Source: Naegleria gruberi
Lineage: Eukaryota
DNA: 64,000 bases
NCBI GenBank assembly: GCA_000004985.1
Contig: GG738860.1
Reading direction: 5' to 3' (one strand)
Of this stretch, positions 1,795 to 61,370 are shown piece after piece (within the stretch, counting starts at the first letter, position 1; every line of letters begins with the position of its first letter). The notes beneath the pieces were generated by a model. It saw only the letters and a list, made by a program, of their open reading frames with translations. It had not been told where the DNA came from and did no database searches. The position numbers and the translations under genes are program-made.

Positions 1795-2261
1795 TTTCAC
1801 ATGTTGTATCACCAGTAACAGTATTTGTAGTTGTTCAAACGGATTACCATAAAAGGAACCTTAGTGTTTCTTTTTAATATAATTATACTTACATATATGT
1901 ATACCTACTGAGAATGGATCCATACAATCGATTACTCCAACGAACTAAATTTTGAATCTGCTAATTGTCAACAAATGATATTGTTAAACAAAATACAAAC
2001 ACTATGAAATGCACAACTTCATTCTAAACATTGTATTAGAAAAATTGGAAATAGGAAAGAATCGGTAAAATTGTCTCATAGTGATTCTCTCTTGTTTATG
2101 GCCATAAATACTTTTTTGGACAGTTTCGTATGAAATTGGGTTTTGTAATATTTATTTTCTATGACATGTCATGCATAATTTCTTGTACTTGCCATCTCAA
2201 TGGCACACAAGGGTCACAACAAATTTTTTCTTCAAGAGGCACCANCTCCTTCTTGCTTGTT

Positions 2262-5200: not shown

Positions 5201-8200
5201 NNNNNNNNNNNNNNNNNNNNNNNNNNNNNNNNNNNNNNNNNNNNNNNNNNNNNNNNNNNNNNNNNNNNNNNNNNNNNNNNNNNNNNNNNNNNNNNNNNNN
5301 NNNNNNNNNNNNNNNNNNNNNNNNNNNNNNNNNNNNNNNNNNNNNNNNNNNNNNNNNNNNNNNNNNNNNNNNNNNNNNNNNNNNNNNNNNNNNNNNNNNN
5401 NNNNNNNNNNNNNNNNNNNNNNNNNNNNNNNNNNNNNNNNNNNNNNNNNNNNNNNNNNNNNNNNNNNNNNNNNNNNNNNNNNNNNNNNNNNNNNNNNNNN
5501 NNNNNNNNNNNNNNNNNNNNNNNNNNNNNNNNNNNNNNNNNNNNNNNNNNNNNNNNNNNNNNNNNNNNNNNNNNNNNNNNNNNNNNNNNNNNNNNNNNNN
5601 NNNNNNNNNNNNNNNNNNNNNNNNNNNNNNNNNNNNNNNNNNNNNNNNNNNNNNNNNNNNNNNNNNNNNNNNNNNNNNNNNNNNNNNNNNNNNNNNNNNN
5701 NNNNNNNNNNNNNNNNNNNNNNNNNNNNNNNNNNNNNNNNNNNNNNNNNNNNNNNNNNNNNNNNNNNNNNNNNNNNNNNNNNNNNNNNNNNNNNNNNNNN
5801 NNNNNNNNNNNNNNNNNNNNNNNNNNNNNNNNNNNNNNNNNNNNNNNNNNNNNNNNNNNNNNNNNNNNNNNNNNNNNNNNNNNNNNNNNNNNNNNNNNNN
5901 NNNNNNNNNNNNNNNNNNNNNNNNNNNNNNNNNNNNNNNNNNNNNNNNNNNNNNNNNNNNNNNNNNNNNNNNNNNNNNNNNNNNNNNNNNNNNNNNNNNN
6001 NNNNNNNNNNNNNNNNNNNNNNNNNNNNNNNNNNNNNNNNNNNNNNNNNNNNNNNNNNNNNNNNNNNNNNNNNNNNNNNNNNNNNNNNNNNNNNNNNNNN
6101 NNNNNNNNNNNNNNNNNNNNNNNNNNNNNNNNNNNNNNNNNNNNNNNNNNNNNNNNNNNNNNNNNNNNNNNNNNNNNNNNNNNNNNNNNNNNNNNNNNNN
6201 NNNNNNNNNNNNNNNNNNNNNNNNNNNNNNNNNNNNNNNNNNNNNNNNNNNNNNNNNNNNNNNNNNNNNNNNNNNNNNNNNNNNNNNNNNNNNNNNNNNN
6301 NNNNNNNNNNNNNNNNNNNNNNNNNNNNNNNNNNNNNNNNNNNNNNNNNNNNNNNNNNNNNNNNNNNNNNNNNNNNNNNNNNNNNNNNNNNNNNNNNNNN
6401 NNNNNNNNNNNNNNNNNNNNNNNNNNNNNNNNNNNNNNNNNNNNNNNNNNNNNNNNNNNNNNNNNNNNNNNNNNNNNNNNNNNNNNNNNNNNNNNNNNNN
6501 NNNNNNNNNNNNNNNNNNNNNNNNNNNNNNNNNNNNNNNNNNNNNNNNNNNNNNNNNNNNNNNNNNNNNNNNNNNNNNNNNNNNNNNNNNNNNNNNNNNN
6601 NNNNNNNNNNNNNNNNNNNNNNNNNNNNNNNNNNNNNNNNNNNNNNNNNNNNNNNNNNNNNNNNNNNNNNNNNNNNNNNNNNNNNNNNNNNNNNNNNNNN
6701 NNNNNNNNNNNNNNNNNNNNNNNNNNNNNNNNNNNNNNNNNNNNNNNNNNNNNNNNNNNNNNNNNNNNNNNNNNNNNNNNNNNNNNNNNNNNNNNNNNNN
6801 NNNNNNNNNNNNNNNNNNNNNNNNNNNNNNNNNNNNNNNNNNNNNNNNNNNNNNNNNNNNNNNNNNNNNNNNNNNNNNNNNNNNNNNNNNNNNNNNNNNN
6901 NNNNNNNNNNNNNNNNNNNNNNNNNNNNNNNNNNNNNNNNNNNNNNNNNNNNNNNNNNNNNNNNNNNNNNNNNNNNNNNNNNNNNNNNNNNNNNNNNNNN
7001 NNNNNNNNNNNNNNNNNNNNNNNNNNNNNNNNNNNNNNNNNNNNNNNNNNNNNNNNNNNNNNNNNNNNNNNNNNNNNNNNNNNNNNNNNNNNNNNNNNNN
7101 NNNNNNNNNNNNNNNNNNNNNNNNNNNNNNNNNNNNNNNNNNNNNNNNNNNNNNNNNNNNNNNNNNNNNNNNNNNNNNNNNNNNNNNNNNNNNNNNNNNN
7201 NNNNNNNNNNNNNNNNNNNNNNNNNNNNNNNNNNNNNNNNNNNNNNNNNNNNNNNNNNNNNNNNNNNNNNNNNNNNNNNNNNNNNNNNNNNNNNNNNNNN
7301 NNNNNNNNNNNNNNNNNNNNNNNNNNNNNNNNNNNNNNNNNNNNNNNNNNNNNNNNNNNNNNNNNNNNNNNNNNNNNNNNNNNNNNNNNNNNNNNNNNNN
7401 NNNNNNNNNNNNNNNNNNNNNNNNNNNNNNNNNNNNNNNNNNNNNNNNNNNNNNNNNNNNNNNNNNNNNNNNNNNNNNNNNNNNNNNNNNNNNNNNNNNN
7501 NNNNNNNNNNNNNNNNNNNNNNNNNNNNNNNNNNNNNNNNNNNNNNNNNNNNNNNNNNNNNNNNNNNNNNNNNNNNNNNNNNNNNNNNNNNNNNNNNNNN
7601 NNNNNNNNNNNNNNNNNNNNNNNNNNNNNNNNNNNNNNNNNNNNNNNNNNNNNNNNNNNNNNNNNNNNNNNNNNNNNNNNNNNNNNNNNNNNNNNNNNNN
7701 NNNNNNNNNNNNNNNNNNNNNNNNNNNNNNNNNNNNNNNNNNNNNNNNNNNNNNNNNNNNNNNNNNNNNNNNNNNNNNNNNNNNNNNNNNNNNNNNNNNN
7801 NNNNNNNNNNNNNNNNNNNNNNNNNNNNNNNNNNNNNNNNNNNNNNNNNNNNNNNNNNNNNNNNNNNNNNNNNNNNNNNNNNNNNNNNNNNNNNNNNNNN
7901 NNNNNNNNNNNNNNNNNNNNNNNNNNNNNNNNNNNNNNNNNNNNNNNNNNNNNNNNNNNNNNNNNNNNNNNNNNNNNNNNNNNNNNNNNNNNNNNNNNNN
8001 NNNNNNNNNNNNNNNNNNNNNNNNNNNNNNNNNNNNNNNNNNNNNNNNNNNNNNNNNNNNNNNNNNNNNNNNNNNNNNNNNNNNNNNNNNNNNNNNNNNN
8101 NNNNNNNNNNNNNNNNNNNNNNNNNNNNNNNNNNNNNNNNNNNNNNNNNNNNNNNNNNNNNNNNNNNNNNNNNNNNNNNNNNNNNNNNNNNNNNNNNNNN

Positions 8201-11200
8201 NNNNNNNNNNNNNNNNNNNNNNNNNNNNNNNNNNNNNNNNNNNNNNNNNNNNNNNNNNNNNNNNNNNNNNNNNNNNNNNNNNNNNNNNNNNNNNNNNNNN
8301 NNNNNNNNNNNNNNNNNNNNNNNNNNNNNNNNNNNNNNNNNNNNNNNNNNNNNNNNNNNNNNNNNNNNNNNNNNNNNNNNNNNNNNNNNNNNNNNNNNNN
8401 NNNNNNNNNNNNNNNNNNNNNNNNNNNNNNNNNNNNNNNNNNNNNNNNNNNNNNNNNNNNNNNNNNNNNNNNNNNNNNNNNNNNNNNNNNNNNNNNNNNN
8501 NNNNNNNNNNNNNNNNNNNNNNNNNNNNNNNNNNNNNNNNNNNNNNNNNNNNNNNNNNNNNNNNNNNNNNNNNNNNNNNNNNNNNNNNNNNNNNNNNNNN
8601 NNNNNNNNNNNNNNNNNNNNNNNNNNNNNNNNNNNNNNNNNNNNNNNNNNNNNNNNNNNNNNNNNNNNNNNNNNNNNNNNNNNNNNNNNNNNNNNNNNNN
8701 NNNNNNNNNNNNNNNNNNNNNNNNNNNNNNNNNNNNNNNNNNNNNNNNNNNNNNNNNNNNNNNNNNNNNNNNNNNNNNNNNNNNNNNNNNNNNNNNNNNN
8801 NNNNNNNNNNNNNNNNNNNNNNNNNNNNNNNNNNNNNNNNNNNNNNNNNNNNNNNNNNNNNNNNNNNNNNNNNNNNNNNNNNNNNNNNNNNNNNNNNNNN
8901 NNNNNNNNNNNNNNNNNNNNNNNNNNNNNNNNNNNNNNNNNNNNNNNNNNNNNNNNNNNNNNNNNNNNNNNNNNNNNNNNNNNNNNNNNNNNNNNNNNNN
9001 NNNNNNNNNNNNNNNNNNNNNNNNNNNNNNNNNNNNNNNNNNNNNNNNNNNNNNNNNNNNNNNNNNNNNNNNNNNNNNNNNNNNNNNNNNNNNNNNNNNN
9101 NNNNNNNNNNNNNNNNNNNNNNNNNNNNNNNNNNNNNNNNNNNNNNNNNNNNNNNNNNNNNNNNNNNNNNNNNNNNNNNNNNNNNNNNNNNNNNNNNNNN
9201 NNNNNNNNNNNNNNNNNNNNNNNNNNNNNNNNNNNNNNNNNNNNNNNNNNNNNNNNNNNNNNNNNNNNNNNNNNNNNNNNNNNNNNNNNNNNNNNNNNNN
9301 NNNNNNNNNNNNNNNNNNNNNNNNNNNNNNNNNNNNNNNNNNNNNNNNNNNNNNNNNNNNNNNNNNNNNNNNNNNNNNNNNNNNNNNNNNNNNNNNNNNN
9401 NNNNNNNNNNNNNNNNNNNNNNNNNNNNNNNNNNNNNNNNNNNNNNNNNNNNNNNNNNNNNNNNNNNNNNNNNNNNNNNNNNNNNNNNNNNNNNNNNNNN
9501 NNNNNNNNNNNNNNNNNNNNNNNNNNNNNNNNNNNNNNNNNNNNNNNNNNNNNNNNNNNNNNNNNNNNNNNNNNNNNNNNNNNNNNNNNNNNNNNNNNNN
9601 NNNNNNNNNNNNNNNNNNNNNNNNNNNNNNNNNNNNNNNNNNNNNNNNNNNNNNNNNNNNNNNNNNNNNNNNNNNNNNNNNNNNNNNNNNNNNNNNNNNN
9701 NNNNNNNNNNNNNNNNNNNNNNNNNNNNNNNNNNNNNNNNNNNNNNNNNNNNNNNNNNNNNNNNNNNNNNNNNNNNNNNNNNNNNNNNNNNNNNNNNNNN
9801 NNNNNNNNNNNNNNNNNNNNNNNNNNNNNNNNNNNNNNNNNNNNNNNNNNNNNNNNNNNNNNNNNNNNNNNNNNNNNNNNNNNNNNNNNNNNNNNNNNNN
9901 NNNNNNNNNNNNNNNNNNNNNNNNNNNNNNNNNNNNNNNNNNNNNNNNNNNNNNNNNNNNNNNNNNNNNNNNNNNNNNNNNNNNNNNNNNNNNNNNNNNN
10001 NNNNNNNNNNNNNNNNNNNNNNNNNNNNNNNNNNNNNNNNNNNNNNNNNNNNNNNNNNNNNNNNNNNNNNNNNNNNNNNNNNNNNNNNNNNNNNNNNNNN
10101 NNNNNNNNNNNNNNNNNNNNNNNNNNNNNNNNNNNNNNNNNNNNNNNNNNNNNNNNNNNNNNNNNNNNNNNNNNNNNNNNNNNNNNNNNNNNNNNNNNNN
10201 NNNNNNNNNNNNNNNNNNNNNNNNNNNNNNNNNNNNNNNNNNNNNNNNNNNNNNNNNNNNNNNNNNNNNNNNNNNNNNNNNNNNNNNNNNNNNNNNNNNN
10301 NNNNNNNNNNNNNNNNNNNNNNNNNNNNNNNNNNNNNNNNNNNNNNNNNNNNNNNNNNNNNNNNNNNNNNNNNNNNNNNNNNNNNNNNNNNNNNNNNNNN
10401 NNNNNNNNNNNNNNNNNNNNNNNNNNNNNNNNNNNNNNNNNNNNNNNNNNNNNNNNNNNNNNNNNNNNNNNNNNNNNNNNNNNNNNNNNNNNNNNNNNNN
10501 NNNNNNNNNNNNNNNNNNNNNNNNNNNNNNNNNNNNNNNNNNNNNNNNNNNNNNNNNNNNNNNNNNNNNNNNNNNNNNNNNNNNNNNNNNNNNNNNNNNN
10601 NNNNNNNNNNNNNNNNNNNNNNNNNNNNNNNNNNNNNNNNNNNNNNNNNNNNNNNNNNNNNNNNNNNNNNNNNNNNNNNNNNNNNNNNNNNNNNNNNNNN
10701 NNNNNNNNNNNNNNNNNNNNNNNNNNNNNNNNNNNNNNNNNNNNNNNNNNNNNNNNNNNNNNNNNNNNNNNNNNNNNNNNNNNNNNNNNNNNNNNNNNNN
10801 NNNNNNNNNNNNNNNNNNNNNNNNNNNNNNNNNNNNNNNNNNNNNNNNNNNNNNNNNNNNNNNNNNNNNNNNNNNNNNNNNNNNNNNNNNNNNNNNNNNN
10901 NNNNNNNNNNNNNNNNNNNNNNNNNNNNNNNNNNNNNNNNNNNNNNNNNNNNNNNNNNNNNNNNNNNNNNNNNNNNNNNNNNNNNNNNNNNNNNNNNNNN
11001 NNNNNNNNNNNNNNNNNNNNNNNNNNNNNNNNNNNNNNNNNNNNNNNNNNNNNNNNNNNNNNNNNNNNNNNNNNNNNNNNNNNNNNNNNNNNNNNNNNNN
11101 NNNNNNNNNNNNNNNNNNNNNNNNNNNNNNNNNNNNNNNNNNNNNNNNNNNNNNNNNNNNNNNNNNNNNNNNNNNNNNNNNNNNNNNNNNNNNNNNNNNN

Positions 11201-11231
11201 NNNNNNNNNNNNNNNNNNNNNNNNNNNNNNN
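2262..11231. other. Sized assembly gap of 8970 N. All ORF-track entries of the form 2130..13386 that consist of X residues are artefacts.
   Basis: Run of N. An isolated N also occurs at 2245. Confidence 1.
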
Positions 11232-14200
11232 TACTGGAACAATTGCCAAAGTCTTTTCTGCTCCATACGGTGTTAAAAGCTTCCACAAACTTGAGAATGG
11301 TAATTTTATTTTCGCAGAGAAAAATTATCCTAGAATTGCCCTTTTCAAGACCAATAGCAGCAAGATTATCTACTTGGCTGGTCAATACGAACAAGGTTAC
11401 GATCCAATCGTTATTTCTGACAATGTGTTAGCAACCACAACAAGTGTGAATCATCCTCGATCACTCTATGTAAAGAATGGAGAGCTCTATTTTGCAGATA
11501 CCTACAACTCTCTCGTGAGAAAAATCACCCTCTCAACAGGAGTTCTCTCAACCATTGCTGGTAATGGAGGTGAGCGTTTTTATGGGGATGGTGGATTGGG
11601 AACGAGTGCTTCTTTGAACTATCCATATGGAATTCACTTACATACTGATGGTTCTATCTACATTGCCGATACTTACAATAGTAAGATTAGAAAGTTAGAC
11701 TCTTCCAAAAAGATTAGCTCAGTTGCTGGAAATGGATATTTGGGATATTCGGACAATACTCAACCATTGAGAGCTTCATTCAATTTGGCAGTAAGCGTTC
11801 TCATTAACAACGTAGGGGACATGTACATTTCAGATTATGCAAACAATGTAATTAGAAAGATGAGCTCCTCTGGTGCCATTACAACTATTGCTGGACAAGC
11901 AAAGATTTCTGGTTTTGCTGATAGTTTAAATGCAAAGACTGCTCTATTGAATGGTCCATTTGGATTATATTATCAGGAATCCACACAAACTCTCTTTTTT
12001 GCTGACAGTCTCAATGGTAGAATAAGAAAGCTAACAAAGAATGGAGCAATTGAAACAGTTCTTGCTTCAATTAACGATCCAAGAGAAATCTCATTCCACA
12101 CAACCCATGGTCACATGTACTTTACTTCTGGAGGTGACCAAACCATTAAGGTTCTATTCTCCAATGGTACTCTTTCTGTGCTCAACATTCCAAAAGATTA
12201 CTACATTGGTCTCCATGTTGATTCCACTAATGATTATCTCTATGCAAGTGGTTATACATACATTTATAGATTTTCCATTGCAGGAGGTAGTAGCATTGAT
12301 CACAATCAAACCGATCCAATCATCGATAACATTTCTAAGAATTGTACTAAGGGATGTGAAAAGGGTGAATGTGTGAATGGAACTTGCGTCTGTAAGGAAA
12401 ATTATGGAGGTGAAATTTGTGATAGGCCAATGTGTTTTGGAAAATTGAGCAATGAGAGTGGTGTGTGTAATACTCACGGAGTTTGTCTGCAACCAAACGT
12501 TTGCTACTGTTACGGAAATTGGGAGGCCGAAGAATGCACCCAATGTAAGAGTGGATTTACTGGTTCTAATTGCAGAACCTGTGCCGATGGTTTTGTTGGA
12601 GAATTGTGTAATATCCCTATTTGTTTCAACGTATTTGCTAATGAATCAAACGTTTGTTCTGGACATGGTTCTTGCAAATCTCCAAACAATTGTTCATGCT
12701 TTGGAAATTGGGAGGGAGAAAGTTGTCAATCTTGTAAGGAGGGATACACTGGCTCAGAATGTGACACTCCAGTTTGTTTCGGGTTCAGNNNNNNNNNNNN
12801 NNNNNNNNNNNNNNNNNNNNNNNNNNNNNNNNNNNNNNNNNNNNNNNNNNNNNNNNNNNNNNNNNNNNNNNNNNNNNNNNNNNNNNNNNNNNNNNNNNNN
12901 NNNNNNNNNNNNNNNNNNNNNNNNNNNNNNNNNNNNNNNNNNNNNNNNNNNNNNNNNNNNTGGGTTGGAGATTGTGTGATTCCTGTCAAGCTGGATACAG
13001 TGGTTCAAATTGTGATATTCCTGTTTGTTTTGGATCAAGCGTTGAAGGAGATGGTTCTTTGGTTTGCTCAGGGCACGGTAACTGTTCAGGACCAGATATG
13101 TGCACTTGTAACGAAAACTGGTCTGGAAATGATTGTTCCACTTGTAGAGAAGGTTATTATGGAGAAGACTGCTCCTCATGTACACCTGGATTCAGTGGTG
13201 AGAGATGTGACATTCCTTCATGCTTTGGTATTTCAGCAAATGCTAGTAATGTATGTTCTGGAAATGGTTATTGTTTCAGTCCAGATTTGTGCTCCTGCTT
13301 TGAGAATTGGAAGGGTGAAAGTTGTAATCAATGCAGTAGCGATTACATTGGTGAATTGTGTGATATTCCGTCCTGTTTTGGAGTGAATGGTAATGATAGA
13401 TCAGTTTGTTCTGGTCATGGCTCTTGTATTACCCCATCCAATTGTTCTTGTTTCAATAACTGGGAAGGAGCAATGTGTGAAAATTGTCCAACAGGTTTCT
13501 CTGGAGATGACTGCAAATCCTGTGACGAAAGTCACACTGGAGAGGGATGTGATGTTCCAATCTGTTACGGCCTTGCAGCTAATAATGAAAGTGTTTGCTC
13601 TGGAAATGGCAAGTGCATTGAGTCCTCTGTATGTGTTTGTTCTGGTTTTTGGACTGGAGCTAATTGTGATACTTGTCCAGAAAAGTATTCAGGATCGGCT
13701 TGTGATGTGCCAGTTTGTTATGGAGTAAGCGCTAACGATTCTATGGTTTGCTCTGGACATGGTTCTTGTGTTGCACCTTCTCAATGTTTTTGTGAAGGAA
13801 GATGGGCTGGAGAATTGTGTGATTCCTGCGTGGCTGGATATAATGGTTCAAATTGTGAAAATCCAATCTGCTTTGGAGAATTCAACACCTCTATTGTTTG
13901 TTCTGGTCATGGTTTGTGCTCAGCACTAGATGTTTGTGTGTGTAGCGAGCAATGGGCTGGAGAAACTTGTGGCAAATGTAATTCTGGATATTACGGAATA
14001 ACTTGTGAGCTTTCTTGTGATCCACAAATAGTGAAACCATCTCTCACAATCAAGCAAGGTTCAATAATTTCCTATGTGATTGGAACTTCTATTGCTTTGG
14101 AACCAGAATTGACAATTCCATTGTGCTATGCCGGTCATTTCAGCTCCATTAGCTATGGATATGCTTCTGATTTCTTTAACCAATCTCAACTGGTTCAGGT

Positions 14201-17200
14201 TGATAAATTCCTTGTCATTGGCGAATCAACCAAGAGCTCTGGAACTTTAATTTCTAACGAAGGTGAATATTCATTCAAGGTTATTGCTACACTTGGCAGG
14301 TTGGAAATTTCCACTTCCTTTGAATTTATTGTCAAGTCCAATTTGGCTTCGCTCACTCTTGATTTCAACATTCCAAATATGCTCACTCAATCCTTTGAAA
14401 AACCTTTGGAATTTGAAGTTAAAGCCTCTGATCCAAGCTTCCCTAGTGATTTAACTGAGGGTGATTTATCACTCAATTGTTGGAATCAAGATAATCAATT
14501 GGTAGAAAAGTTGGTTGACACTGTTTTCAATCATACTATTACAGTCTCAAAACAACTCAATCCAGGGCAATATGTTTGTGAAGCAACATTCAAGAAGGAT
14601 TCCAGAGTTATTACCAAGTCAATTCAGGTTGTCCTTGTTGATGTCTCTTCATCAAATGTACTCACTGTTACTCTTAAATTGGAAGGTCAAAATCCAACTT
14701 GGGTAAATCCAACAAAAGATTTGACCATATCAGCTGATATCAAAGAATCTATTGGTCCAAATGTTGTGTATGATTGGAAATCTCCATTCCAACCAATGGA
14801 TACAACTGTCTCGAATCAATTAGTTATTCCATCCAGTCAATTAGCTCTTGGAAAGAGGTATAACATTTCTCTGATTGTTACAGATGGAAGTAAGAAGGGA
14901 TTTGGATTTATTTCCTTCAAGACCTATAGTCCTCCTTCAATGGGATCATTCTCTGTTTCTCCTCTCTTTGGTTACTCTCTCACAACCAATTTCATGCTAT
15001 CTGGTGGTGTTGATTGGATTTCTTTCAATCAAGATGTCTTGACATTTACATTCATTTATAGAAGTGTAGGTTCTTTGGCATGGAAATCATTGGCTGAAAG
15101 TTCTGTTCAAACATCTCTCAATACTACTCTCCCTTCAGGAACATGGGAAACTTCAGTTTCAGTTTCCGATTCATTCTTATCATACACAATCTATGATAAA
15201 CCAGTCATAGTCCAGGTGAATACTACAGATTTAACTGTTGCTCAATTGAATTATGTTGCCTCTAATCCAATTACTCCATCAGTCATTTCTTCATTGATTA
15301 GTTATGTGAGCAGTGGTTCTTCTTCCAAGTGAAAGAACAATCAAAACAAATTGTCATGGATAGTATCAAGACATCTTTGACAAAGGAGACTCTTGACACT
15401 ACATTGACAGTTTCTTCATTGAAATCTGCCATTTCAGTTATTGATTCGGTGAGCTCAGTTGTTAATGTCTTTAGGGATAGTGAAAGTACTGTTGTTTTGG
15501 AATACTTTTCGACAGTATTACACAAGACAATATCCAATGGAATTCAAATGTCTTCTGATGATATTCAGCTATGTTTGAACTCTGCTACAAAATTTGAAGA
15601 ATTCTTCTTTGGATCAAAGAGACGAACTTCTCGTGCAGTATCTGATTCACTTGAAAAGATCACTCAGATTTATAATATTCTCACAGAAGTTCAGTTCAGA
15701 AAACTAAAGGAAGGCGAAGGCCCTTCAAGAATTTCAAGTTTATCATACTACTCGTATTGCAAATTTATGAAATCTGATTCGATTGCTCCATATTCTGATA
15801 CCATCACTCAAACTTCTCTTCAATTCTCCTTGTTGCAAGCCCTTAATACTTCAAGAGATACTTTGGGCGTTCCAGAGAATTCAATGGTATGCCTCAAGAT
15901 GTATTATGTTCAATCTTGGAGAAGTGTCATGCCAAGCTCTTATACTGTTGAGTTATCATTCTTGGATATTAAGCGTGATTATGCCTCTGTTTCAATTTCT
16001 AGTAGCCACAATATTGCAAAATTGACCATTCCAAGAATGAATACTGGAGTTGATAAGAAACAAACATGTTACCTTGTTGATACAATGAAAAAGGAAGAAT
16101 GCTCAATTTCCTCTACTAGTCCTCTTCAAATAGTTATTCAAACCACCAAGACTGGAAAATTCTTTGTTGGTTACTATGAAGATGCTGCAACGCCAATTGT
16201 TAATCCTTCCAATGGTGACGTTTCCCTCAGTGCTTTTATTGTCATATTTGCCATCATTCTTCCAATATTAGTTTGTGGTTGTATTTGTGCAGCACTTGCT
16301 ATTGTTTGTGGTTGTGCCTGTAAGAAATGGAAAGCTAGAGCAGCATTGAACAGCCATTCAATTCTCCGAAGTACTCAATCATTACCACTTCCAAATGAAC
16401 GATTGGATGTAACATTTGATGATATCAATGTCTATAATACTGGAATTAATAGTAGTCCTTTATTGCCACTCTATATTCAACCAAGTGAACTTAAACTCTT
16501 GTCGAAACTGGGAAGTGGTGGATATGGAAGTGTTCATAAGGCCTATTGGAAAGATCAACTTGTTGCTGTCAAGTCTACTCCAGTTCCAGATAACTCCAAG
16601 CAAATTGAAATTCCAAGAGAAGCTGCACTCATGTATTCATTGAAACATCCAAATATTGTTGAATGTTACGGTATTTCTATTAAGGGAAAGGAACAATTAA
16701 TTGTTATGGAATATGTTAATGGAAATTTGAATCAATTGATTGGGGATTTGTGTAGAAAATCTATCAAGATGGATTTGGATGAAAAGATTGAAATTTTACT
16801 TCAAATTGCCACTGGTATGAATTACTTGCATCAATTGAATCCTTCCATTGTTCACAGAGATTTGACTCCTGCTAATGTGTTATTTGATCCAAGAACAAAA
16901 GCTTGTAAGATTTGTGATTTTGGTCTCAGTAAGCCGCTCAACTTGGAAAATACTGAAACCAAGAATAGGAGTACCATATATTTCGTTCCTAACGAGCTTA
17001 TTTGTTGTACAGATCCAAATTTAACCAATAATCCACGTGCCATTGATGTTTACAGTTTCTCCATTCTTGCTTGGCAAGTAATCTTTGAAGACCATCCTTA
17101 TCTGTATATCAATAAGGAAAAACTCTTCTCCAACTCTAAATTCAAACACACTCCATATGTTGATGTGACCAATGACAACTTATTGGCAAGAGTTGCTACT

Positions 17201-17434
17201 GGATTGAGACCTGTCATTCCATTCAATGCTGATACAGTTTCTAAATGGACTCAAAAATTCATCAAATCCAAGTATGATAATGATTTGATAGCACTCTCAA
17301 TGATTGCCATAGCTCAACTCGTTCAAAATTGTTGGAACTTGAATCCTCATTTGAGACCCAACTTCCAAGATGTTAGTGATACATTACAAACATGCAAAAA
17401 TACTCTCTCCAGTAACCATCCTCTCTTAGTTTAA
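11232..17434 (+). CDS. Giant receptor-type protein kinase. The 5' part lies in the gap, there is an internal 172-N gap at 12789-12960, and a frame discontinuity occurs near 15305-15371. Domain order is NHL beta-propeller, about 15 EGF-like modules, a beta-rich extracellular region, one TM helix and a cytoplasmic TKL-type kinase domain.
   Basis: NHL-type repeats span 11232-12300 (YPYGIHLHTDGSIYIADTYNSKIRKL). Tandem Cys-rich modules of the form C..C..GY.G..C..P.CFG....VCSGHG.C.....C.C...W.G..C span 12340-14010. The TM segment SAFIVIFAIILPILVCGCICAALAIVCGCAC lies near 16225-16320. The kinase carries GSGGYGSVHKAYW..VAVK, HRDLTPANVLF and DFG motifs at 16480-17400, with a TAA stop at 17432-17434. 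The ORF track splits the gene into 12774..15332 and 15329..17434 because of a -1 frame change. Confidence 0.75.
12789..12960. other. Assembly gap of 172 N inside the EGF-repeat region of the receptor-kinase gene
   Basis: Run of N. Confidence 1.
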
Positions 17435-46431: not shown

Positions 46432-48158
46432 TTATTCATCTTCATCACTTATGCAATACCAATTCATTTCATTCCATTTTCTCAATTTTTTAAATCCAAA
46501 AGAAGTAATCAATGAGCTTTCCTTGATACCAATATTTCTCAATAATTTCAGTACTGTTTCATTTGTTTCTGCATTAAAATTATTCCATAAATAATCAATA
46601 TCATCATCAGAAAAGTAATATCCCAAACGATTCAAATTCTTGAAGGTTTCATTCTTTGCCAATATTTCAACAAAATCAATATCAACCACTTGCTCCTCAT
46701 CAATTTCATCACCTTCATTATAAACTGAAAGATCTCGTAAATTTACGAGAATATTTGATTTGGCAAGATATTCTAAATCTGATATTGTTGATGGCATGGA
46801 CAAGTGTAAAGTATTAAGGTTGGAAAAGTATTGGGAATCTGAATAAAATAACTTGAACCCATTCAAGCAACTATTGGCTTTGTGAATTTCCAAACATTCA
46901 AGAGATTTTGCGGTCGAATTAATGACACTAACCAAATGGTCAGAACCGTGTTCTAGTTTGACTTTTCCATTTATGAGTAATATTTGGAGATTGCTAATAT
47001 AGTTGGATTGCATAATTTCATCAATATCACGAACTTGACTCAAAAATTCTAAATATGTCATATTACTCAATGTTTCATTCTCTGAAAGTGATAAAACTCC
47101 CTTATTCGATATTTGAAACAGTGTTAAACTTTCTAACATTGGCATTTTGAACCTACAAACAAGATCGGTAGCAAAGGATGAACAATCAAAAGTTAATGAT
47201 ACTAAATTTGGACATTCGATATTGATTTCCTCATTTTCCTTCTCACTACGCAATTCGAACCAGTCTCCCTCATCAATAGTACAATATCTCAGGGATGGAC
47301 ATTCAAAAATCTCGAACAACTCTGCAAAAGAACAAGTGGCAGTCAAATTGTGCAATGTCAAATATTCTAATACTGGTAATGATGCAATGTAAGAAATTCC
47401 ACTCGCATCCATATTTTCCAACTCCAAACTCCTCAAACAATTAGTATATCTGTTGACGTATAGAGCTACATTATTCAAGCGTTTAGTACCTCTAATTGTC
47501 AGTGATGTTAAATTGTGCAACAAGTGTGAATCCAGATACATTCTTCCCTCTCCTGTCATCCAAAAATCCAAACGTTTAATATTCATAATGTTTACATTAT
47601 CCAAATCTGAGAATAAGAGTTCAGATTGCAAACAGAGCTTTAGGCTTTTTAAATTTCCAAATTGTTGAATATATCAGCAGGTCTGTCATATTCAGAAGAT
47701 GTTATTATTGCATTTTCCATAGAGTTGAAATATTTAGATTTTACAAACTCAATCAAATCTGGTCTATTCTCATCTAAATAATAATGGAATTGCCTCAAAT
47801 GTCCAACTGCTCTATAAAATTGTTTAGAAACAAGTAAAAGCTTAAAACCCTCCAAATTTGGCAAATAGGATAGAATGACAGCAATTACATCATCACAGGC
47901 ATTTTCCATCACATTTTGCCGATGTTTCTTCTTTGAATTTTTTAACTTTGCTTCATCACAAATATTTGAATATTTTCTCTTCCGATCCAGTATTTCCAAT
48001 TCCAAGTGTAAATGCTTAGTACGTTCCCTAGCCATCAGGAGTTGAAATATTTGATCGGAGTTCAATCCCACATCATTCAATGCTACCAATTCATTGTTAA
48101 GATTTCCATCAGAAATATTTTTTACATCTTGATTGGATAAAGATGGTTGTAGAGACAT
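46432..48158 (-). CDS. F-box/LRR protein with a -1 frame disruption near 47632-47650, so it is either a pseudogene or an assembly error
   Basis: The upstream ORF 47649..48302 carries the F-box VIAVILSYLPNLEGFKLLLVSKQFYRAV. The downstream ORF 46432..47631 carries LRRs. No GT donor is available before the stop, so an intron cannot repair the break. Confidence 0.5.
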
Positions 48159-48274: not shown

Positions 48275-49426
48275 ATGAGCGATTTGGCATCAAGCACAAC
48301 ATCCTATCATAGAGTTACACAATTTAATTCTCCTCATGCCTCCAATGTCCTTCCACAAATATTGAAACTCTTATCGGAGATTGAAAAGGAAAATCGAGTA
48401 AAAATTTTGTATGTTTGTGATGCTGGATCGAGAGCCATGTCGATTCATGATCAATCGGAGTGATTCTAGTGATTATGATGTTAGATTTGTATATGTTCAT
48501 CCAGTTGATTGGTATTTGAGAGTTAGAGATGAAGTTGATTTGGAAATTAGAAAGAAGGTGATGATTAAATTGGATCATTTGAAAGGAGATGAAACTGAGA
48601 TTGATTTTGTTGGATATGAATTTAGGAAAATGTTGAGCTATACTGCAAAATCAAATCCTACAGCAATGGAATGGATGGTTCAGAGTGAAATTATTTATTA
48701 TTGTTATGATGAAAAGTGGTTGAAAGAAATGAAAGAATTTTGGAATGTTTATTATTTTAATTTAAAGACAATTGGTATGTTCTTTCATTTGCTTTTTATT
48801 TACACAATTGATGTTTTGAATAATTTATATTTTACATATTTGGAAATATAGTATATCACTATTTGAATATTGCAAAGGATAATTATTGTGATTATTTAAG
48901 AAACAAAGCAGAAGTGAATAGAAAAAAGTACATTTACGTAATGAGATGTTTATTGTGGGTTGAGCATGCCAAACTTTCTCACTTTTCAGCTTGGAAAAAT
49001 GGACAAACTGTAGAAAAGATTACTCCAATTATACCTGTACCACCTTTCGATGTTAATCTTCTACTTTCTGAAACATTGGAAAAACAAAAGGAATATTTGG
49101 AATATCCTGAAAAGGATAAGTATCCAATACAGTTCAATTTCTTTGATAAGCAAACCCAAGCTCTTGAACAATTGAATTATTTGATTGATAGAAAGAAGGC
49201 TAGTTCTGGGCAATGGACTAAACAACCTAGAATTCCAGTATTAGACGATTGGCTCATGTTTCTTAGAATGGAAGAAAAAGTTTTTGCAGACAAGATTCTT
49301 TCACTAGAGAAGAGAAAGATTGATTGCATTACACAAGAAGAAAAGAACTCACTCCAACAACGATTCGATTCTTTATTCTATGAGCATGTTATGGGTTTTG
49401 ATAAGATTCCATCTGTATTAGAATAA
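48275..49426 (+). CDS. Nucleotidyltransferase-like protein of the Pol-beta/MNT fold. It has one frame break near 48440-48465 and one 77-nt intron at 48775..48851.
   Basis: The hG[GS]-x9-13-D.D signature is LYVCDAGSRAMSIHDQS|SDSSDYDVRFVYVHP, split across a +1 frame change. The GTATGT intron restores ...KTI|V|YHYLNIAKDNYCDYL. Confidence 0.5.
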
Positions 49427-49474
49427 AGAGGTGAATTGAAAATGGAATTAATGTCTGCCACGAATGCCTGACTT

Positions 49475-50893
49475 TCAATGGTTAACTTCTCTGGTATTTT
49501 CAAGATCGATATCATAGTCAACTTCTGGCACTTCTGATTCATGATCTTGGTATAATTCAACTTTTTCGCTTTCTCTACGAACCATGAACCTTTCATCTCC
49601 TTCAAGACCGAATTCATTGGTGAGGGATTGTTCACGTTCTTGATTATTGGACTCATTTGACTCTTCGCTGTTATCACTTACTGATTGATCTTTGTTTTCA
49701 TCACCCTTGTCTTCGTCATTTGAGTAAGAAGGAGCATTTAATGAACTTGTATCCTTAATGTTTTGATTTCCAGATTCAACTTGGTCATTTGTTGGAGATT
49801 CAATTGAAACACTTGGTTTAGTAGACAGAGTATCCATTCTTGTGTTTGGAGGAAGAGGCATTCCACTTTCGTCAACCGTTTTGCTGACCTCCTCTTCTGA
49901 TTGTTGTGGAACTTCTCCTGGTGGAGAAATAGGCTTTTCATCCTCTTTCTCTAAATTTGTGCTGTCACTTGTCTGGGAATTAATTGGTGCTTCATTTTCT
50001 CCCAAGTTGATGATATTTGGTTGAAGAGGCTCTGGATTAATCATTGGAGGAAGAGGCATTCCACTTTCGTCAACATTTTTGCTGACCTCTTCTTCTGATT
50101 GTGAGGATTGAGCTGGTGGAACTTCTCTTGGTGGAGGAATATGCTTTTCCTCGTTAACTGAATCTGTACTCTCATTGGCCTGGGAATTACTACTACTATC
50201 GTCAGTAGCTGAACCTCTTTCCCTTGGAAGAGGTTCTGTTTGAGAAGAGCTTGTTTCCTGTGAAGGTGAAAGCGCAATTTCTGGTTCAGCAGTTGCTTTT
50301 TCTTCCTTTGGTTGTGATGCTGTTGAAGGATTTTGATTCTCTTCATTCTTAACAGGTTGTTGTTCTGAAACAGGTCCATCATTTGATTTTTCAGATTCTT
50401 CCTTTGGAAGAGGTTCAGAAGTTGGTTCAGATGACTTTGATTCATTTTCAATTGATTTTTCTGAAGGTTTCTCTGGAATTGGTTCAGATTTCAAACTAGC
50501 ATCCTGCTTAATTTCAGTATTTTGCTTTTTGTTGGTAGTCCATAAATTACACATTTGAGAAAGCTCCCTTTTTGACATACCAAGCCATTTCTTTTCCTTT
50601 TTAATGTCATCCTTCAATTGTTGTAAATCTAAAGCGTACTGATTCTTCAACAAGGTATTCTTACTTCCCGAGTGAATGTTTTTAATCAATCTATTAAGAA
50701 CCCTATTAGCTCTAATCATTTTCTTCATTTCATGCTTACTTCGCATTCTAATATCTAATAATTTACATGCGTACTCATTCTCATCTGATACAACAGCACC
50801 CTCAACCATGCAAATCATCAGCATCAGTATGATGCTCATCAAGAACAGAACCAACACCCCAACGGCCCTCTTACCACCCTCTTTTCCCTTCAT
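49475..50893 (-). CDS. Secreted or membrane-anchored acidic S/E/P-rich repeat protein of 472 aa
   Basis: The N-terminus carries the hydrophobic segment VLVLFLMSIILMLMICMV. An internal near-duplicate segment EVP..QS.EEEVSK.VDESGMPLPP appears twice, with the DNA copies near 49841-49935 and 50040-50135. Confidence 0.6.
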   Translation of the reverse strand: MKGKEGGKRAVGVLVLFLMSIILMLMICMVEGAVVSDENEYACKLLDIRMRSKHEMKKMIRANRVLNRLIKNIHSGSKNTLLKNQYALDLQQLKDDIKKEKKWLGMSKRELSQMCNLWTTNKKQNTEIKQDASLKSEPIPEKPSEKSIENESKSSEPTSEPLPKEESEKSNDGPVSEQQPVKNEENQNPSTASQPKEEKATAEPEIALSPSQETSSSQTEPLPRERGSATDDSSSNSQANESTDSVNEEKHIPPPREVPPAQSSQSEEEVSKNVDESGMPLPPMINPEPLQPNIINLGENEAPINSQTSDSTNLEKEDEKPISPPGEVPQQSEEEVSKTVDESGMPLPPNTRMDTLSTKPSVSIESPTNDQVESGNQNIKDTSSLNAPSYSNDEDKGDENKDQSVSDNSEESNESNNQEREQSLTNEFGLEGDERFMVRRESEKVELYQDHESEVPEVDYDIDLENTREVNH

Positions 50894-51225
50894 GTTTCAA
50901 TAATACAAATAAACCAACTACAGTCACACAGATCTACAGTGATATGCTTAGTGGCTTTTTTTTTGATCTGATATTCTACATCGAATCATCAACCCTGTAA
51001 AACGACCTATTGAGATGGTGGAGAACTAACTGTAGTGTGAGGTTGATAGCTGGAGAGCGCACATTTAAGCTAGTTATTGTAAAAAATTTAACACTACTGG
51101 TTGGAATGGATTGGATAAAATGGCATTGTATAATATGTTTGTTATCCATATATCAGCAATTTTCAATAGATTATGAACATTTTGTAAAGTATTATTTAAA
51201 ATTAATTATTTAAAAATTAAAAAAA

Positions 51226-57239: not shown

Positions 57240-59236
57240 ATGGCTCCTCAAAGTAATAAGTATTCTAACAAGGTGGATGATGAAGATTATGAAGATTCAT
57301 TTTCTGCAGCAATGATGGATGATACCGGAGGTGATAATTCATATGAAAATAATAGGCTTCAGCTGGAAGAAACAGGAGGAAGACTACACATTGACGATCA
57401 CCATCTACAAGAAACAGAATTACAAGATGTGGATTTGGTAAAAAGTTCAAATTCTAGTTCTGCCAACAGTAGAGAACCATTGAAAGAGGATGATGTGGCG
57501 GAGTTGAAAGTTATGACAAATACAAAGAAGAGATTGTCACCCAAAGAGATTTTAGCAAATATGAAATCAGTCTTGTTGACAAAGGCCTTTTTACAAACCA
57601 TGTTATTGAACTTTGCCATTTTGTGCATGTGTATTTCGTGTAAGTTTTACTGTTGAATTTCATAGTAATGTAATTGATTATTATCCATTTCACATTTTGG
57701 GCAAATTATTTCATCATCTTCATCATCTGTTGATCAACATTATTTCAATACAATGAAACAGCTAGTAGTGTAGGATCACTTATCAATGTTTTTGCCAAAC
57801 AAACCAATACAGACCGATCTGAAGTTGGTATTGTTTTCACAATCAGAGGTATCGGAGCACTTGTGACAACACTTATTGGAGGATTTGTCATGGATGCAAT
57901 GAAGAAATTTATGGACAAGAAGATTAAGGATCATCACAAGAGAACTCTCTATGAAACTCTTACAAATTATGCATTGATTATTGTGTCCATTCTCATCATG
58001 ACTCTTGCATCTGCATTGATGCCTTTTGGTTCTTCATTGTGGTCTCTATGTGCAATCTTCTTACTGTGGGGTGTAGGGCAGGGATATTTAGGTATTTGTG
58101 CTCAAGCTTTATTATTCAGTATTTGGAATGAGATGAAGATTAATGTCACACCATTCTCACAATTATTCCACTTTTCTGCAGGTCTTGGTTTATTCTTTGG
58201 ACCATTTACTGTTTTGGTTGTGAATAGTATTTTGGGAGTTGATAATTCACAAGTTGTAGTTCCTGCTGATGAAGGTGCTGAATCATTGTCATCCATTTTA
58301 CAAAATAATGTGACATTTATTAATTCTACCATTGGAAATTCTACTGAGGGAACACCAGCTGGATTTATTGAAGGAACACTCATTTCCAAGTCTGTTTTGG
58401 GAACTAACTTTATTGTCTGTCTCTTGTACTTGCTTTCCATTGGTTTGTTCATTATTTACATGGTCTACATGTGGATGAAGAGAAACGAAATCTCTGACGA
58501 TGTTAAACCAATCAATGATGGAGAAGAGGATGACACTGCTTCTGTTGGTAGTATTGAACATGGAGAAGCAAAGAAACCAAATAATTCTAGAACTGTATTC
58601 CTTACCAAGCTTTTTGTTACCATTTTGGTTGCTTTGGCTCTTTTATCATACTGTATGGCTGAGAGCACTTATGGTAACGTTATTTATTCATACTTGACTG
58701 CTATGGAATTGGCAGATGACAGTGAAGCAAACATGATCAATTCTGGTTTTTGGCTGTTGTTCACAATTGGCAGAGGTATTGCCATTCCAATTTCATATTT
58801 CATTCCACCATTTATCATGTTACTTGTTGACTTTATTGGAATTACGATTAGTGTTTCGTTATTATGGATTTTCTCTACCAATATTTCAGTTTTGTGGGTT
58901 GCAAGTCTCTTGTTAGGTCTTTCCATTGCCAGTTTGTATCCAACAACCATTTCAATTCCATCATCAGTAATGAATTTGGAAATTACTGGCTTAATGACCA
59001 GTTTGATGGTTTTGGGAGGCTCTGGAGGTGCAATGTCTGGTCCATACATTACCCTTGCTCTCTTCAAGAAGATTAGTCCAAAAGTTATCTTTGCAACAGT
59101 TACAATCAGTGTAGTTTGTTTGGCCCTCGTTATTATTTCTCTATTCATTTTCAGCCGTATTTACAATAGAAGAAGAAATACCAAAGAAGTTGCCACTCAA
59201 TCTGAAAAAGTTCATGAAGTTTCTCCAGTTGAGTAA
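57240..59236 (+). CDS. Major-facilitator-superfamily transporter (MFSD4-like) with an acidic N-terminal extension. Two exons, 57240..57639 and 57762..59236.
   Basis: A 122-nt intron at 57640..57761, running GTAAGT...AAACAG, joins TM1 (FLQTMLLNFAILCMCIS|SSVGSLINVFA) to a 12-TM body carrying the MFS-type loop motifs GIVFTIRGIGALVTTLIGG. Confidence 0.65.
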
Positions 59237-59314
59237 TTTTCTTCAAAGACTTTAAACAACGAGAAATCAATTAATTTAGTTTACAATAAAAATATTTATT
59301 TCAATTAAAAAAAA

Positions 59315-61198
59315 ATGAAAGAAAACAAACATTGTGATGAAACAACTCCTGGAGGATCATCAGGAGAAGAAGGAATTTCAGGAAAATACTCTCAAATATT
59401 AATTGCCATCCTTCCCACATTTCTAACGAGTATTCTCGATGTTTATATTGATATGCACTTGACTAAATATTACATGGAAGATATTTGTAAATATTATTCG
59501 GATAAATCATGTATAGAGGCTTCAAGGTTTGGATTGGTAAATTCCTTCATCCGATCATTAAGTTTAATAACAGATTTCTTCAGTGCAACCTTGATTGATT
59601 CAAGTAGCCTTGGACAACAAACTCTCTTGATGATTTGTGCACCAATTTATTGGATGAGTATTGTTGGATTGTTTTTGGGACCTTCATTGTATAGATCGGA
59701 GATGATTCCCACATTTATTTGGTTTATTATTTGTTCATTATTGAAGAATATGGTACCACTGAGAGTTTTATATGATACATCAATTGTGAGAATGTGTAAA
59801 TTGTGGAATGTGAAGGATAGATCGGATTTATTTTCTGTGAAACATCAAGCTTCAATGTATGGAGGAGTTTTGGGAGCATTCTTGCCATCGCTGCTGAGAT
59901 TTATATTATCTTCGTTGACTTTGAGTGAAAATCAAATTACAAGAGTATATATCATGATTGGAAGTTTACTAATTATTGGATCTTATGTATTCATGTCGAG
60001 TTTCTTTCGAAATTCAAGAGAAATGAATAGTTTCAAAAAGGAAAAAACAGAGGAAAAGAAATCAGTCTCATGGATTCCTGCATTGAAAAAGTGCTTTGAA
60101 AATAGAGCCTTTGTAGCTCTACTTTGCTTGTTTAGTTATGAAACATTGAGAGGATTATTGTGGAATGGTCTATACATTTTCTACATTACTAAAGTATTGA
60201 ATTTGGAGGGAGCTAATTTTGATTTTTGGACTGGAGTTCTCAACACGACTGGAATGATATTTGCCATGATATTCTCCCCACTATGGCAATATATGGCTTC
60301 CAAGTATGGTAATTATAATACTTGGCTAGTTTCATATCTAGTTCAGATACCTATTGGTGTTTTTGTGTACTTGTTTGTGGATTATTCGAGTACAGAACCT
60401 CAAATTTGGAATTATCTTCCATTCTTTGTCTTGCTGACAATTACTGGAAGGTCTAGCGGATTCCTTCTCGATAGTATCAAGACTACCGTCTTTGATTATG
60501 ATGAATTGAGAACTGGAGAGAGAAGGGAAATTTCTTTGGAGGCCACCTGGTCGTTCCTACCAAGATATATTGATTTAATATCTAGCTCTGTATCTTTTGG
60601 AATTTTATCATATTTCAATACTTATGGACTGTCTGTTGAGGAGAGAACATCTTTGAAGAGTGGAACTTATACCCTAATGGGAAAACACTCGATATCTGTG
60701 CAAGCTGCTCTACTCCCAAGCTTGACCTCAATAGTATGCCTTTTCCTCATGTACAGATTCCCAATCAACGATCAAAAACATGCCGAAATTTTGGATTTAA
60801 TCAGGAAGAGAAAGGAAGAGGATAATCACTCTAAAATTATTGATCCATTAACAGGAGAGGAAATCATAATCCATGAAGAATCCGACAAGAATTCTCAAAA
60901 AATCAATAAGAAATCAAGAGAGGAAGAGGATTATTTCTTTACCTTTGAATTGGACATGATAAAGAGTAACACTAGTTGGTATGGTAAATGGTTGGTAGAA
61001 ATTGAGATTATCACCACCATTTCCATGACCATTCTCTTTGGAATATTTGGCTACAAATTTATAATGAATGTTTTATTTGGTGAGGATATCTACGCAAGTT
61101 TATTCCTTTGGTTAAGCTCTGTAACATTTACCTTGTCCACATTCTTCCTCTCCAGAATAAGTGTTGCTAAGAAATTGAGGAAACAAAATTGTTTTTGA
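59315..61198 (+). CDS. Polytopic membrane transporter that resembles the GPH/MFSD2 cation-symporter family
   Basis: A 627-aa single-exon ORF with about 12 predicted hydrophobic helices and a central loop. The family assignment is tentative. Confidence 0.6.
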   Translation: MKENKHCDETTPGGSSGEEGISGKYSQILIAILPTFLTSILDVYIDMHLTKYYMEDICKYYSDKSCIEASRFGLVNSFIRSLSLITDFFSATLIDSSSLGQQTLLMICAPIYWMSIVGLFLGPSLYRSEMIPTFIWFIICSLLKNMVPLRVLYDTSIVRMCKLWNVKDRSDLFSVKHQASMYGGVLGAFLPSLLRFILSSLTLSENQITRVYIMIGSLLIIGSYVFMSSFFRNSREMNSFKKEKTEEKKSVSWIPALKKCFENRAFVALLCLFSYETLRGLLWNGLYIFYITKVLNLEGANFDFWTGVLNTTGMIFAMIFSPLWQYMASKYGNYNTWLVSYLVQIPIGVFVYLFVDYSSTEPQIWNYLPFFVLLTITGRSSGFLLDSIKTTVFDYDELRTGERREISLEATWSFLPRYIDLISSSVSFGILSYFNTYGLSVEERTSLKSGTYTLMGKHSISVQAALLPSLTSIVCLFLMYRFPINDQKHAEILDLIRKRKEEDNHSKIIDPLTGEEIIIHEESDKNSQKINKKSREEEDYFFTFELDMIKSNTSWYGKWLVEIEIITTISMTILFGIFGYKFIMNVLFGEDIYASLFLWLSSVTFTLSTFFLSRISVAKKLRKQNCF

Positions 61199-61370
61199 AA
61201 TATGATCTCTGCATTGAAATGATTCGTGCATTACTTTTGAAACGCCCTCTCATGTTCTGGTATGTCTGTTACAATCTGTTGATTATAAAATACATTTTAG
61301 TAAATGAGGACATTTTTTTAAACAACAAGATTAGTCTGTCACTTCGACGAATCATCTCAAATATAGATGT

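Follow-up and report, generated by a model that had tools for sequence, protein, structure and literature searches.

The 64,000-nt stretch of Naegleria gruberi DNA analysed here (contig GG738860.1 of assembly GCA_000004985.1, hereafter the window) carries, at positions 48275–49426 of its plus strand, a gene spread over three open reading frames: ORF1 (48275–48463) and ORF3 (48863–49426) in frame 0 and, between them, ORF2 (48411–48851) in frame +1. The initial annotation read the three as a single gene, and the profile searches bear this reading out, as the ORFs taken singly match consecutive parts of the Pfam profile PF10127 (RlaP), namely profile positions 4–32, 35–129, and 131–163. When one nucleotide is skipped near 48457–48461 and 48775–48851 is removed, the joined 357-aa product matches PF10127 with 130.8 bits (E=9.1e-38), above the gathering threshold (the Pfam cut-off for this family is 23 bits). 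This search, which the initial annotation had proposed alongside its claim of a nucleotidyltransferase-like gene, does place the protein in the nucleotidyltransferase (NTase) superfamily, among the RlaP members of its Pol-beta group, and the predicted structure of an ortholog, with an NTase fold and a helical domain, agrees with that placement. Searches of NCBIfam, and of the literature with the locus tag, gave no match. On the strength of its sequence, the locus is the N. gruberi ortholog of a Pol-beta-type nucleotidyltransferase of the RlaP family (PF10127) found in Heterolobosea.

The first coding segment, 48275–48460, starts at an ATG that lies just 3' of an in-frame TAA and encodes residues Met1–Glu62 in frame 0, including the hG[GS] motif with its GS at 48425–48430; it is 69% identical to the Naegleria lovaniensis protein over 39 aa. 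The second segment, 48462–48774, runs in frame +1 (DSSDYDVRF...NLKTI), matches the profile on its own with E=1.9e-18, is 75% identical to N. lovaniensis, and supplies the DxD carboxylates (48471–48473 and 48477–48479) as well as a third conserved Asp (48603–48605). The last segment, 48852–49426, is again in frame 0 (VYHYLN...SVLE, followed by TAA at 49424–49426) and encodes the C-terminal helical domain together with insertions specific to the Heterolobosea. The catalytic residues G51, S52, D66, D68, and D110 occupy columns that do not vary among 8 and among 37 aligned sequences, and the family-invariant residues, which comprise G51, S52, R53, S65, D66, D68, R70, D110, and others, are all kept. 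Besides the break at 48461 discussed below, no further stops or frameshifts were found in the gene.

The best homologs of the product are proteins of N. lovaniensis (C9374_002427, 64% identity), N. fowleri (60%), and Willaertia magna (ABK040_010408, 52%), whereas bacterial PF10127 proteins reach no more than 41%, and this along about half of the length. Further eukaryotic relatives were found in Acrasis kona (KAL0476686.1, annotated as ‘ycgL’) and Percolomonas (A0A7S1KMI8), both of them orthologs, and also on a protist metagenome contig and in a Vermistella transcript. The heterolobosean orthologs have in common with the N. gruberi gene the clade-specific motifs NRKKYIY, SSGQW.K.PRI, and FADK.LS.EKR.ID, the position of the first intron, and synteny; they differ from it in that their GS...DxD segment is uninterrupted and one codon longer. 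A Naegleria-clade RlaP gene also lies at 224–1397 of a JGI metagenome contig (3300002220, MLSBCLC_10095958; L010 below), where it has both of the introns described next, is followed by a CFAP77 gene, and is intact at the position of the break.

The second and last coding segments flank a spliceosomal intron at 48775–48851 of the plus strand (77 nt, phase 1, GTATGT...ATATAG, 19% G+C), which is also part of the public gene model. The initial annotation had already described it as a clean 77-nt GTATGT intron, a description now substantiated by introns of identical position and phase in two Naegleria-clade loci, N. lovaniensis (GTTTGT...AACAG) and L010 (40 nt, GTAGGT...AATAG). With 48775–48851 removed, the sequence reads ...KTI|VYHYLN..., as it does in the orthologs; several other GT-AG pairs in the vicinity leave the frame open, but none of them matches that reading. 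A second intron (RIEV|LDDW), present in N. lovaniensis and L010, is absent from N. gruberi, and the Willaertia gene is devoid of introns.

The junction of the first two segments is of another kind. Frame 0 reads ...IHDQSE and then TGA (48461–48463), and skipping T48461 restores DSSDYDVRF. The initial annotation had located a frame change inside the Pol-beta signature, and the break does fall between the GS (48425–48430) and the DxD (48471–48479); the split point given there, ...QS/SDSS..., has to be corrected to GSRAMSIHDQSE/DSSDYDVRF. In a DNA alignment with N. lovaniensis, L010, and W. magna, a 2-nt gap appears in the N. gruberi window only, where the codons CAA TCG GAG T-- GAT TCT AGT GAT TAT GAT stand against GAA ATG GAT, GAA AAG GAT, and CCA TTA AAT in the orthologs, and T48461 is the remnant of the codon that these read as ATG, AAG, or TTA. 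At the protein level the alignment is QSE[M/K]DSSDYD, with GSRAMNIHDQSEMDSSDYDVRF in N. lovaniensis, ...QSEKDSS... in both N. fowleri and L010, and ...QSPLNSSDFD in Willaertia; N. fowleri, compared as protein, thus has the extra residue too. As all four orthologs are uninterrupted here and have one codon more, the window is a net 2 nt short. The leftover T48461 begins a TGA in frame 0, and the product initiated at ATG 48275 therefore ends after 62 aa. With GS in frame 0 and DxD in frame +1, the assembly offers no continuous frame for an active enzyme, whereas the orthologs are continuous throughout the signature. An intron bridging the break was considered and rejected; a single nucleotide separates the conserved QSE from the conserved DSSDYD, and this leaves no room for one.

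The public gene model deals with the break differently. This model, NAEGRDRAFT_79267 (XP_002678796.1, UniProt D2VB28; 332 aa), was reached by a profile search of 1.84 billion representatives, through a recovered protein whose 90% cluster contains the public protein. Removal of 48409–48484 (76 nt) and 48775–48851 (77 nt) from the window CDS reproduces it exactly, which identifies the window as N. gruberi NEG-M. The model shares with our reading the locus, start, stop, and 77-nt intron and is 100% identical outside the disputed segment; it differs in being without YVCDAGSRAMSIHDQSE-DSSDYDVR, the whole hG[GS]...DxD signature, which is cut out as a plus-strand intron at 48409–48484 (GTATGT...TGTTAG, 41% G+C). 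The public model, in other words, regains the frame only by splicing out the entire catalytic signature, and because of this deletion its Pfam match begins at profile position 43 and reaches 82.7 bits, as opposed to 130.8 for the joined product. An intron should be non-coding, and 48409–48484 is not, as it encodes the ortholog-conserved GSRAM.IHDQSE and DSSDYDVR in two frames. Its GTATGT forms part of the codons Leu-Tyr-Val, and a GTATGT also occurs in N. lovaniensis, at a distance of 3 nt and within translated sequence (Phe-Val-Cys). Judged by these features, the 76-nt intron is almost certainly an artefact of gene prediction. What is new here is the concealment of the lesion by the public gene model, which deletes the active site. 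For curation, XP_002678796.1/D2VB28 should be regarded as a mis-modelled RlaP whose catalytic motif has been spliced away; its use in family alignments, or as evidence of an ‘inactive’ eukaryotic RlaP, would be misleading.

As to the cause of the break, the initial annotation offered sequencing error or recent decay. Both are still live, and the word ‘recent’ has gained support from a relative-rate test with Willaertia as the outgroup, which gave no indication of long-term relaxation: the window has 29 lineage-specific substitutions vs 33 for N. lovaniensis (p=0.61), and 30 vs 34 in the comparison with N. fowleri. Where the window alone departs from the residue at an otherwise invariant position, the change is mostly a conservative one. 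The lack of rate acceleration, the lack of a second lesion, and the retention of the invariant residues together imply that the gene has been under purifying selection over essentially its whole history, and, there being no long-term decay, that the lesion is either very recent or artefactual. All in all, the RlaP gene is ordinary, native, and of ancient acquisition, and carries one 2-nt lesion of one or the other kind.

We give a genuine deletion of very young age about an even chance of explaining the missing 2 nt, which makes it slightly likelier than a consensus error. On this view the codon at 48461, between GS and DxD, suffered a net loss of two bases that broke the reading frame, and slippage in the GAGAG/AGTGATT-repeat context could have been the cause. 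The break site lies in a direct repeat of 7 nt, AGTGATT (48459 and 48468), and a hypothetical ancestor reading GAG-AGT-GAT would turn into exactly the present sequence if one AG dropped out. Such a deletion would be specific to the NEG-M laboratory strain or to a single haplotype, and the copy would thereby be a null allele or a nascent pseudogene. A null allele is made plausible by a report that N. gruberi is heterozygous and diploid (PMC9928731), and NEG-M, should the lesion be real, constitutes a natural null for the RlaP gene.

The leading alternative to a genuine deletion, slightly less probable, is an error in the consensus or assembly. In that event the true gene would have an intact codon at 48461 and encode a functional 358-aa RlaP, and both the break and the 332-aa model would be artefacts. 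An error would readily account for a sole lesion in an otherwise perfectly conserved ORF that keeps all catalytic residues, in a lineage without rate acceleration and at a site where four orthologs are intact, and the window derives from a draft scaffold interrupted by N runs. The pristine remainder of the gene, however, fits a genuine young deletion and an assembly error equally, and the features of the site count against an error: it lies in complex sequence without a homopolymer, no assembly gap in the window comes closer to it than about 35 kb, and a net deficit of 2 nt, rather than 1 nt, is unusual for a consensus error. Agreement with independent sequence also counts against an error. 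Over about 6 kb the window overlaps an independent assembly that is 99.4–99.5% identical to it, and there the shared ORFs are of equal length and have identical or near-identical products.

This independent sequence consists of two contigs of the ENA metagenome assembly ERZ929261 (ERR1078381, PRJEB11402), L003, corresponding to 57276–61313 of the window, and L008, corresponding to 48921–50945; their 99.4–99.5% identity to the window indicates that a wild N. gruberi-like strain was present in the ERR1078381 sample. The shared ORFs are a 457-aa and a 627-aa ORF in L003 and the last 161 RlaP codons in L008. The RlaP part of L008 is 99.5% identical to the window from 48921 onward, with one substitution, an E-to-D change. 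Alignment of the window with L008 requires zero gaps and with L003 six. L008, the only independent contig found for the N. gruberi RlaP gene, begins 3' of the break, and no N. gruberi-like contig across 48461 was recovered by exact look-ups of the ORFs, by gapped-DNA-pattern and protein-guided scans of JGI metagenomes, the latter of which returned distant relatives only, or by a protein search with the N-terminal half. The word-index protein search is incomplete, having missed a protein 99% identical over 161 aa in one run and three others in another, and for this reason the failure to find a contig across 48461 says little about whether one is absent. The raw reads of ERR1078381 might span the frame break.

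A further possibility is that the break is real and the locus nonetheless expressed, either by splicing out 48409–48484 or by a +1 ribosomal frameshift at GAG-UGA-U. We consider such a rescue improbable; if true, it would be a rare and datable case of a eukaryote saving a frameshifted, horizontally acquired gene. True splicing of 48409–48484, whether as coding sequence that turned into an intron after the frameshift or as an alternative splice, would give a 332-aa, catalytically dead RlaP-like RNA-binding protein, and is in itself an unlikely outcome. The segment does look the part, as its GTATGT donor is the same as that of the real intron, its acceptor is an AG, its length is similar, the frame is exactly restored, and the result matches the public model. 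Against these resemblances stand its composition (41% G+C vs 19% in the real intron), the residues kept in all orthologs that its two frames encode, and the GTATGT itself, which is a by-product of [Y/F]-V-C codons, as the translated N. lovaniensis copy 3 nt away illustrates. Gene predictors routinely mask frameshifts with false introns, and this habit also speaks against true splicing.

Programmed +1 frameshifting at GAG-UGA-U would deliver the full-length enzyme from the sequence as written, and is very unlikely. A stop codon at the shift site is a feature of the antizyme (UCC-UGA-U) and RF2/prfB (CUU-UGA-C) genes, and the 0-frame UGA here does sit exactly at the shift point, with GAU as the +1 codon, as in those cases. 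The 0-frame UGA is nonetheless all that is shared with antizyme- and RF2-type sites, as both a conserved site and a stimulatory element are absent: in four of four orthologs the site is an ordinary in-frame codon, and a 106-nt segment that starts 6 nt before the break (48455–48560) folds worse than shuffled sequences (z=+2.2). The P-site GAG, moreover, is unable to re-pair in the +1 frame.

The least probable reading, that the gene is a bacterial or phage contaminant or was transferred very recently and is not a resident of the eukaryotic genome, could appeal to a family that is mostly bacterial and phage-borne (PMC12776372), but it is refuted by a spliceosomal intron common to relatives, by eukaryotic neighbour genes, by orthologs 52–64% identical in N. 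lovaniensis, N. fowleri, and Willaertia vs at most 41% identity to bacterial proteins, and by a host-like base composition. The G+C content of the window outside N runs is 33.7%.

Resident though it is, the gene belongs to a family that is overwhelmingly bacterial, with additional phage members and few eukaryotes (PMC12776372). The initial annotation had called the family mainly prokaryotic or phage-associated, which proved accurate, the nearest named non-eukaryotic relatives found being bacterial; its argument for an old acquisition and against contamination is likewise upheld, by the shared intron, the synteny with N. lovaniensis, and the orthologs in Willaertia, Acrasis, and Percolomonas. 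The phylogeny it had suggested for judging a horizontal origin was built as a neighbour-joining (NJ) tree of 184 sequences, without support values, in which the eukaryotic sequences form a clade inside the mainly bacterial family: six full-length eukaryotic proteins make up an exclusive clade, and Percolomonas falls in a sister pair. No donor lineage was identifiable in this 184-sequence tree. The locus thus has eukaryotic genes on both sides, introns, orthologs by vertical descent, and a place in a clade that is nested within a prokaryotic family, as befits a horizontally acquired, resident eukaryotic gene. From these sequence comparisons, a single ancient acquisition from bacteria, early in the Heterolobosea, is the most likely origin; the RlaP gene would have been taken up once, would then have gained introns, and would since have been inherited vertically. 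The locus documents a bacterial-type RNA-repair nucleotidyltransferase long resident in the Heterolobosea (Naegleria, Willaertia, Acrasis, Percolomonas), a group that provides a eukaryotic setting for testing RlaP function. One of the relatives, on the protist contig mentioned above (L009; JGI 3300062347, Ga0606064_0345, 8001–8933), is an intron-less 310-aa RlaP encoded on a 24.7-kb contig of a compact-genome eukaryote; it groups with the heterolobosean clade and has Vps16, MCM5, SET, and GPS/RGS genes as neighbours.

What the Naegleria protein does can be gauged from the bacterial enzymes of the family. Researchers established that Pseudomonas RlaP (RNA-ligase-associated Pol-beta) adds one or two NMPs to RNA 3'-OH ends, with a preference for damaged tRNA mimics, that this activity requires three strictly conserved aspartates, and that the crystal structure comprises an N-terminal NTase domain and a C-terminal helical domain (PMC12776372). 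Family members add NMPs to damaged RNA, e.g. cleaved tRNA, ahead of religation and employ for this the GS motif and the three aspartates, residues that the N. gruberi gene encodes as well, and by analogy the Naegleria RlaP may trim or extend RNA 3' ends for repair. With bacterial and phage RlaPs, including those of Pseudomonas fluorescens and P. aeruginosa, NrdC.11 of phage T4, and the YcgL-type proteins of Bacillus subtilis, the Naegleria protein shares a strong profile match, the GS, DxD, and third Asp, a full-length alignment with the 250–260-aa bacterial members, and an architecture of N-terminal Pol-beta NTase domain, C-terminal helical domain, and terminal helix. It differs from them in that its gene is eukaryotic, contains an intron, and has a broken ORF in the assembly, and in being about 100 aa longer. 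Insertions account for the extra length: IHDQ follows the GS motif, and others fall within the NTase and helical domains.

A confident AlphaFold (AF2) model (pLDDT 88.6, pTM 0.87), of the N. lovaniensis ortholog rather than of the N. gruberi protein, likewise consists of an NTase domain and a C-terminal helical domain. In Foldseek searches, its best PDB matches were two-domain Pol-beta NTases of remote similarity; searches of the PDB copies used, with the single sequence and with the profile, found neither an RlaP structure nor a sequence relative. The NTase plus helical-domain layout is common to the kanamycin nucleotidyltransferase ANT(4') and other Pol-beta NTases (1kny, 6un8, 3c18, Tam41, Hailong HalB), and the match of the ortholog model to these has a Foldseek probability of 0.99 (E ~4e-4). 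At 9–14% identity and TM-scores of 0.25–0.37, however, these enzymes form a separate family and act on other substrates.

The RlaP family owes its name to a gene neighbourhood with RNA ligases (RtcB, Pnkp/Hen1, etc.). No RNA-ligase or RtcB neighbour was found among the ten large window ORFs scanned, nor beside RlaP in N. lovaniensis, Willaertia, or L009, and none would be expected in a eukaryote, which lacks operons. In N. gruberi, the RlaP gene is instead flanked by genes for F-box-like and leucine-rich-repeat (LRR) proteins upstream and by a BPL_N gene downstream, and the synteny with N. lovaniensis comprises RlaP and this downstream BPL_N gene. Just upstream of RlaP, and divergent from it with only about 116 nt of intergenic DNA in between, are an LRR ORF at 46432–47631 and an ORF with an F-box-like motif (DDVIAVILSYLP...) at 47649–48158, both on the minus strand; the two may be one gene. 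CFAP77 lies downstream of RlaP in N. lovaniensis, Willaertia, and L010, and at the corresponding place the N. gruberi window has a minus-strand ORF, 49475–50893, which codes for a 472-aa, acidic, Ser/Glu/Pro-rich protein with a hydrophobic N-terminus and no Pfam match. Near 50044–50189 this ORF repeats itself internally (about 150 nt, with 80% self-similarity), and 9 sites, 5 of them non-synonymous, differ between the window and the wild strain.

At the other end of the window, N runs occupy 1030–1079, 2245, 2262–11231, and 12789–12960 (50, 1, 8970, and 172 nt), and the six-frame ‘ORFs’ of about 3000 aa at 2130–13386 are artefacts of the large gap. At 12774–17434 of the plus strand, an ORF with EGF and REJ domains is directly followed by a protein-kinase ORF, and together they probably constitute one large receptor-kinase-like gene abutting an assembly gap.
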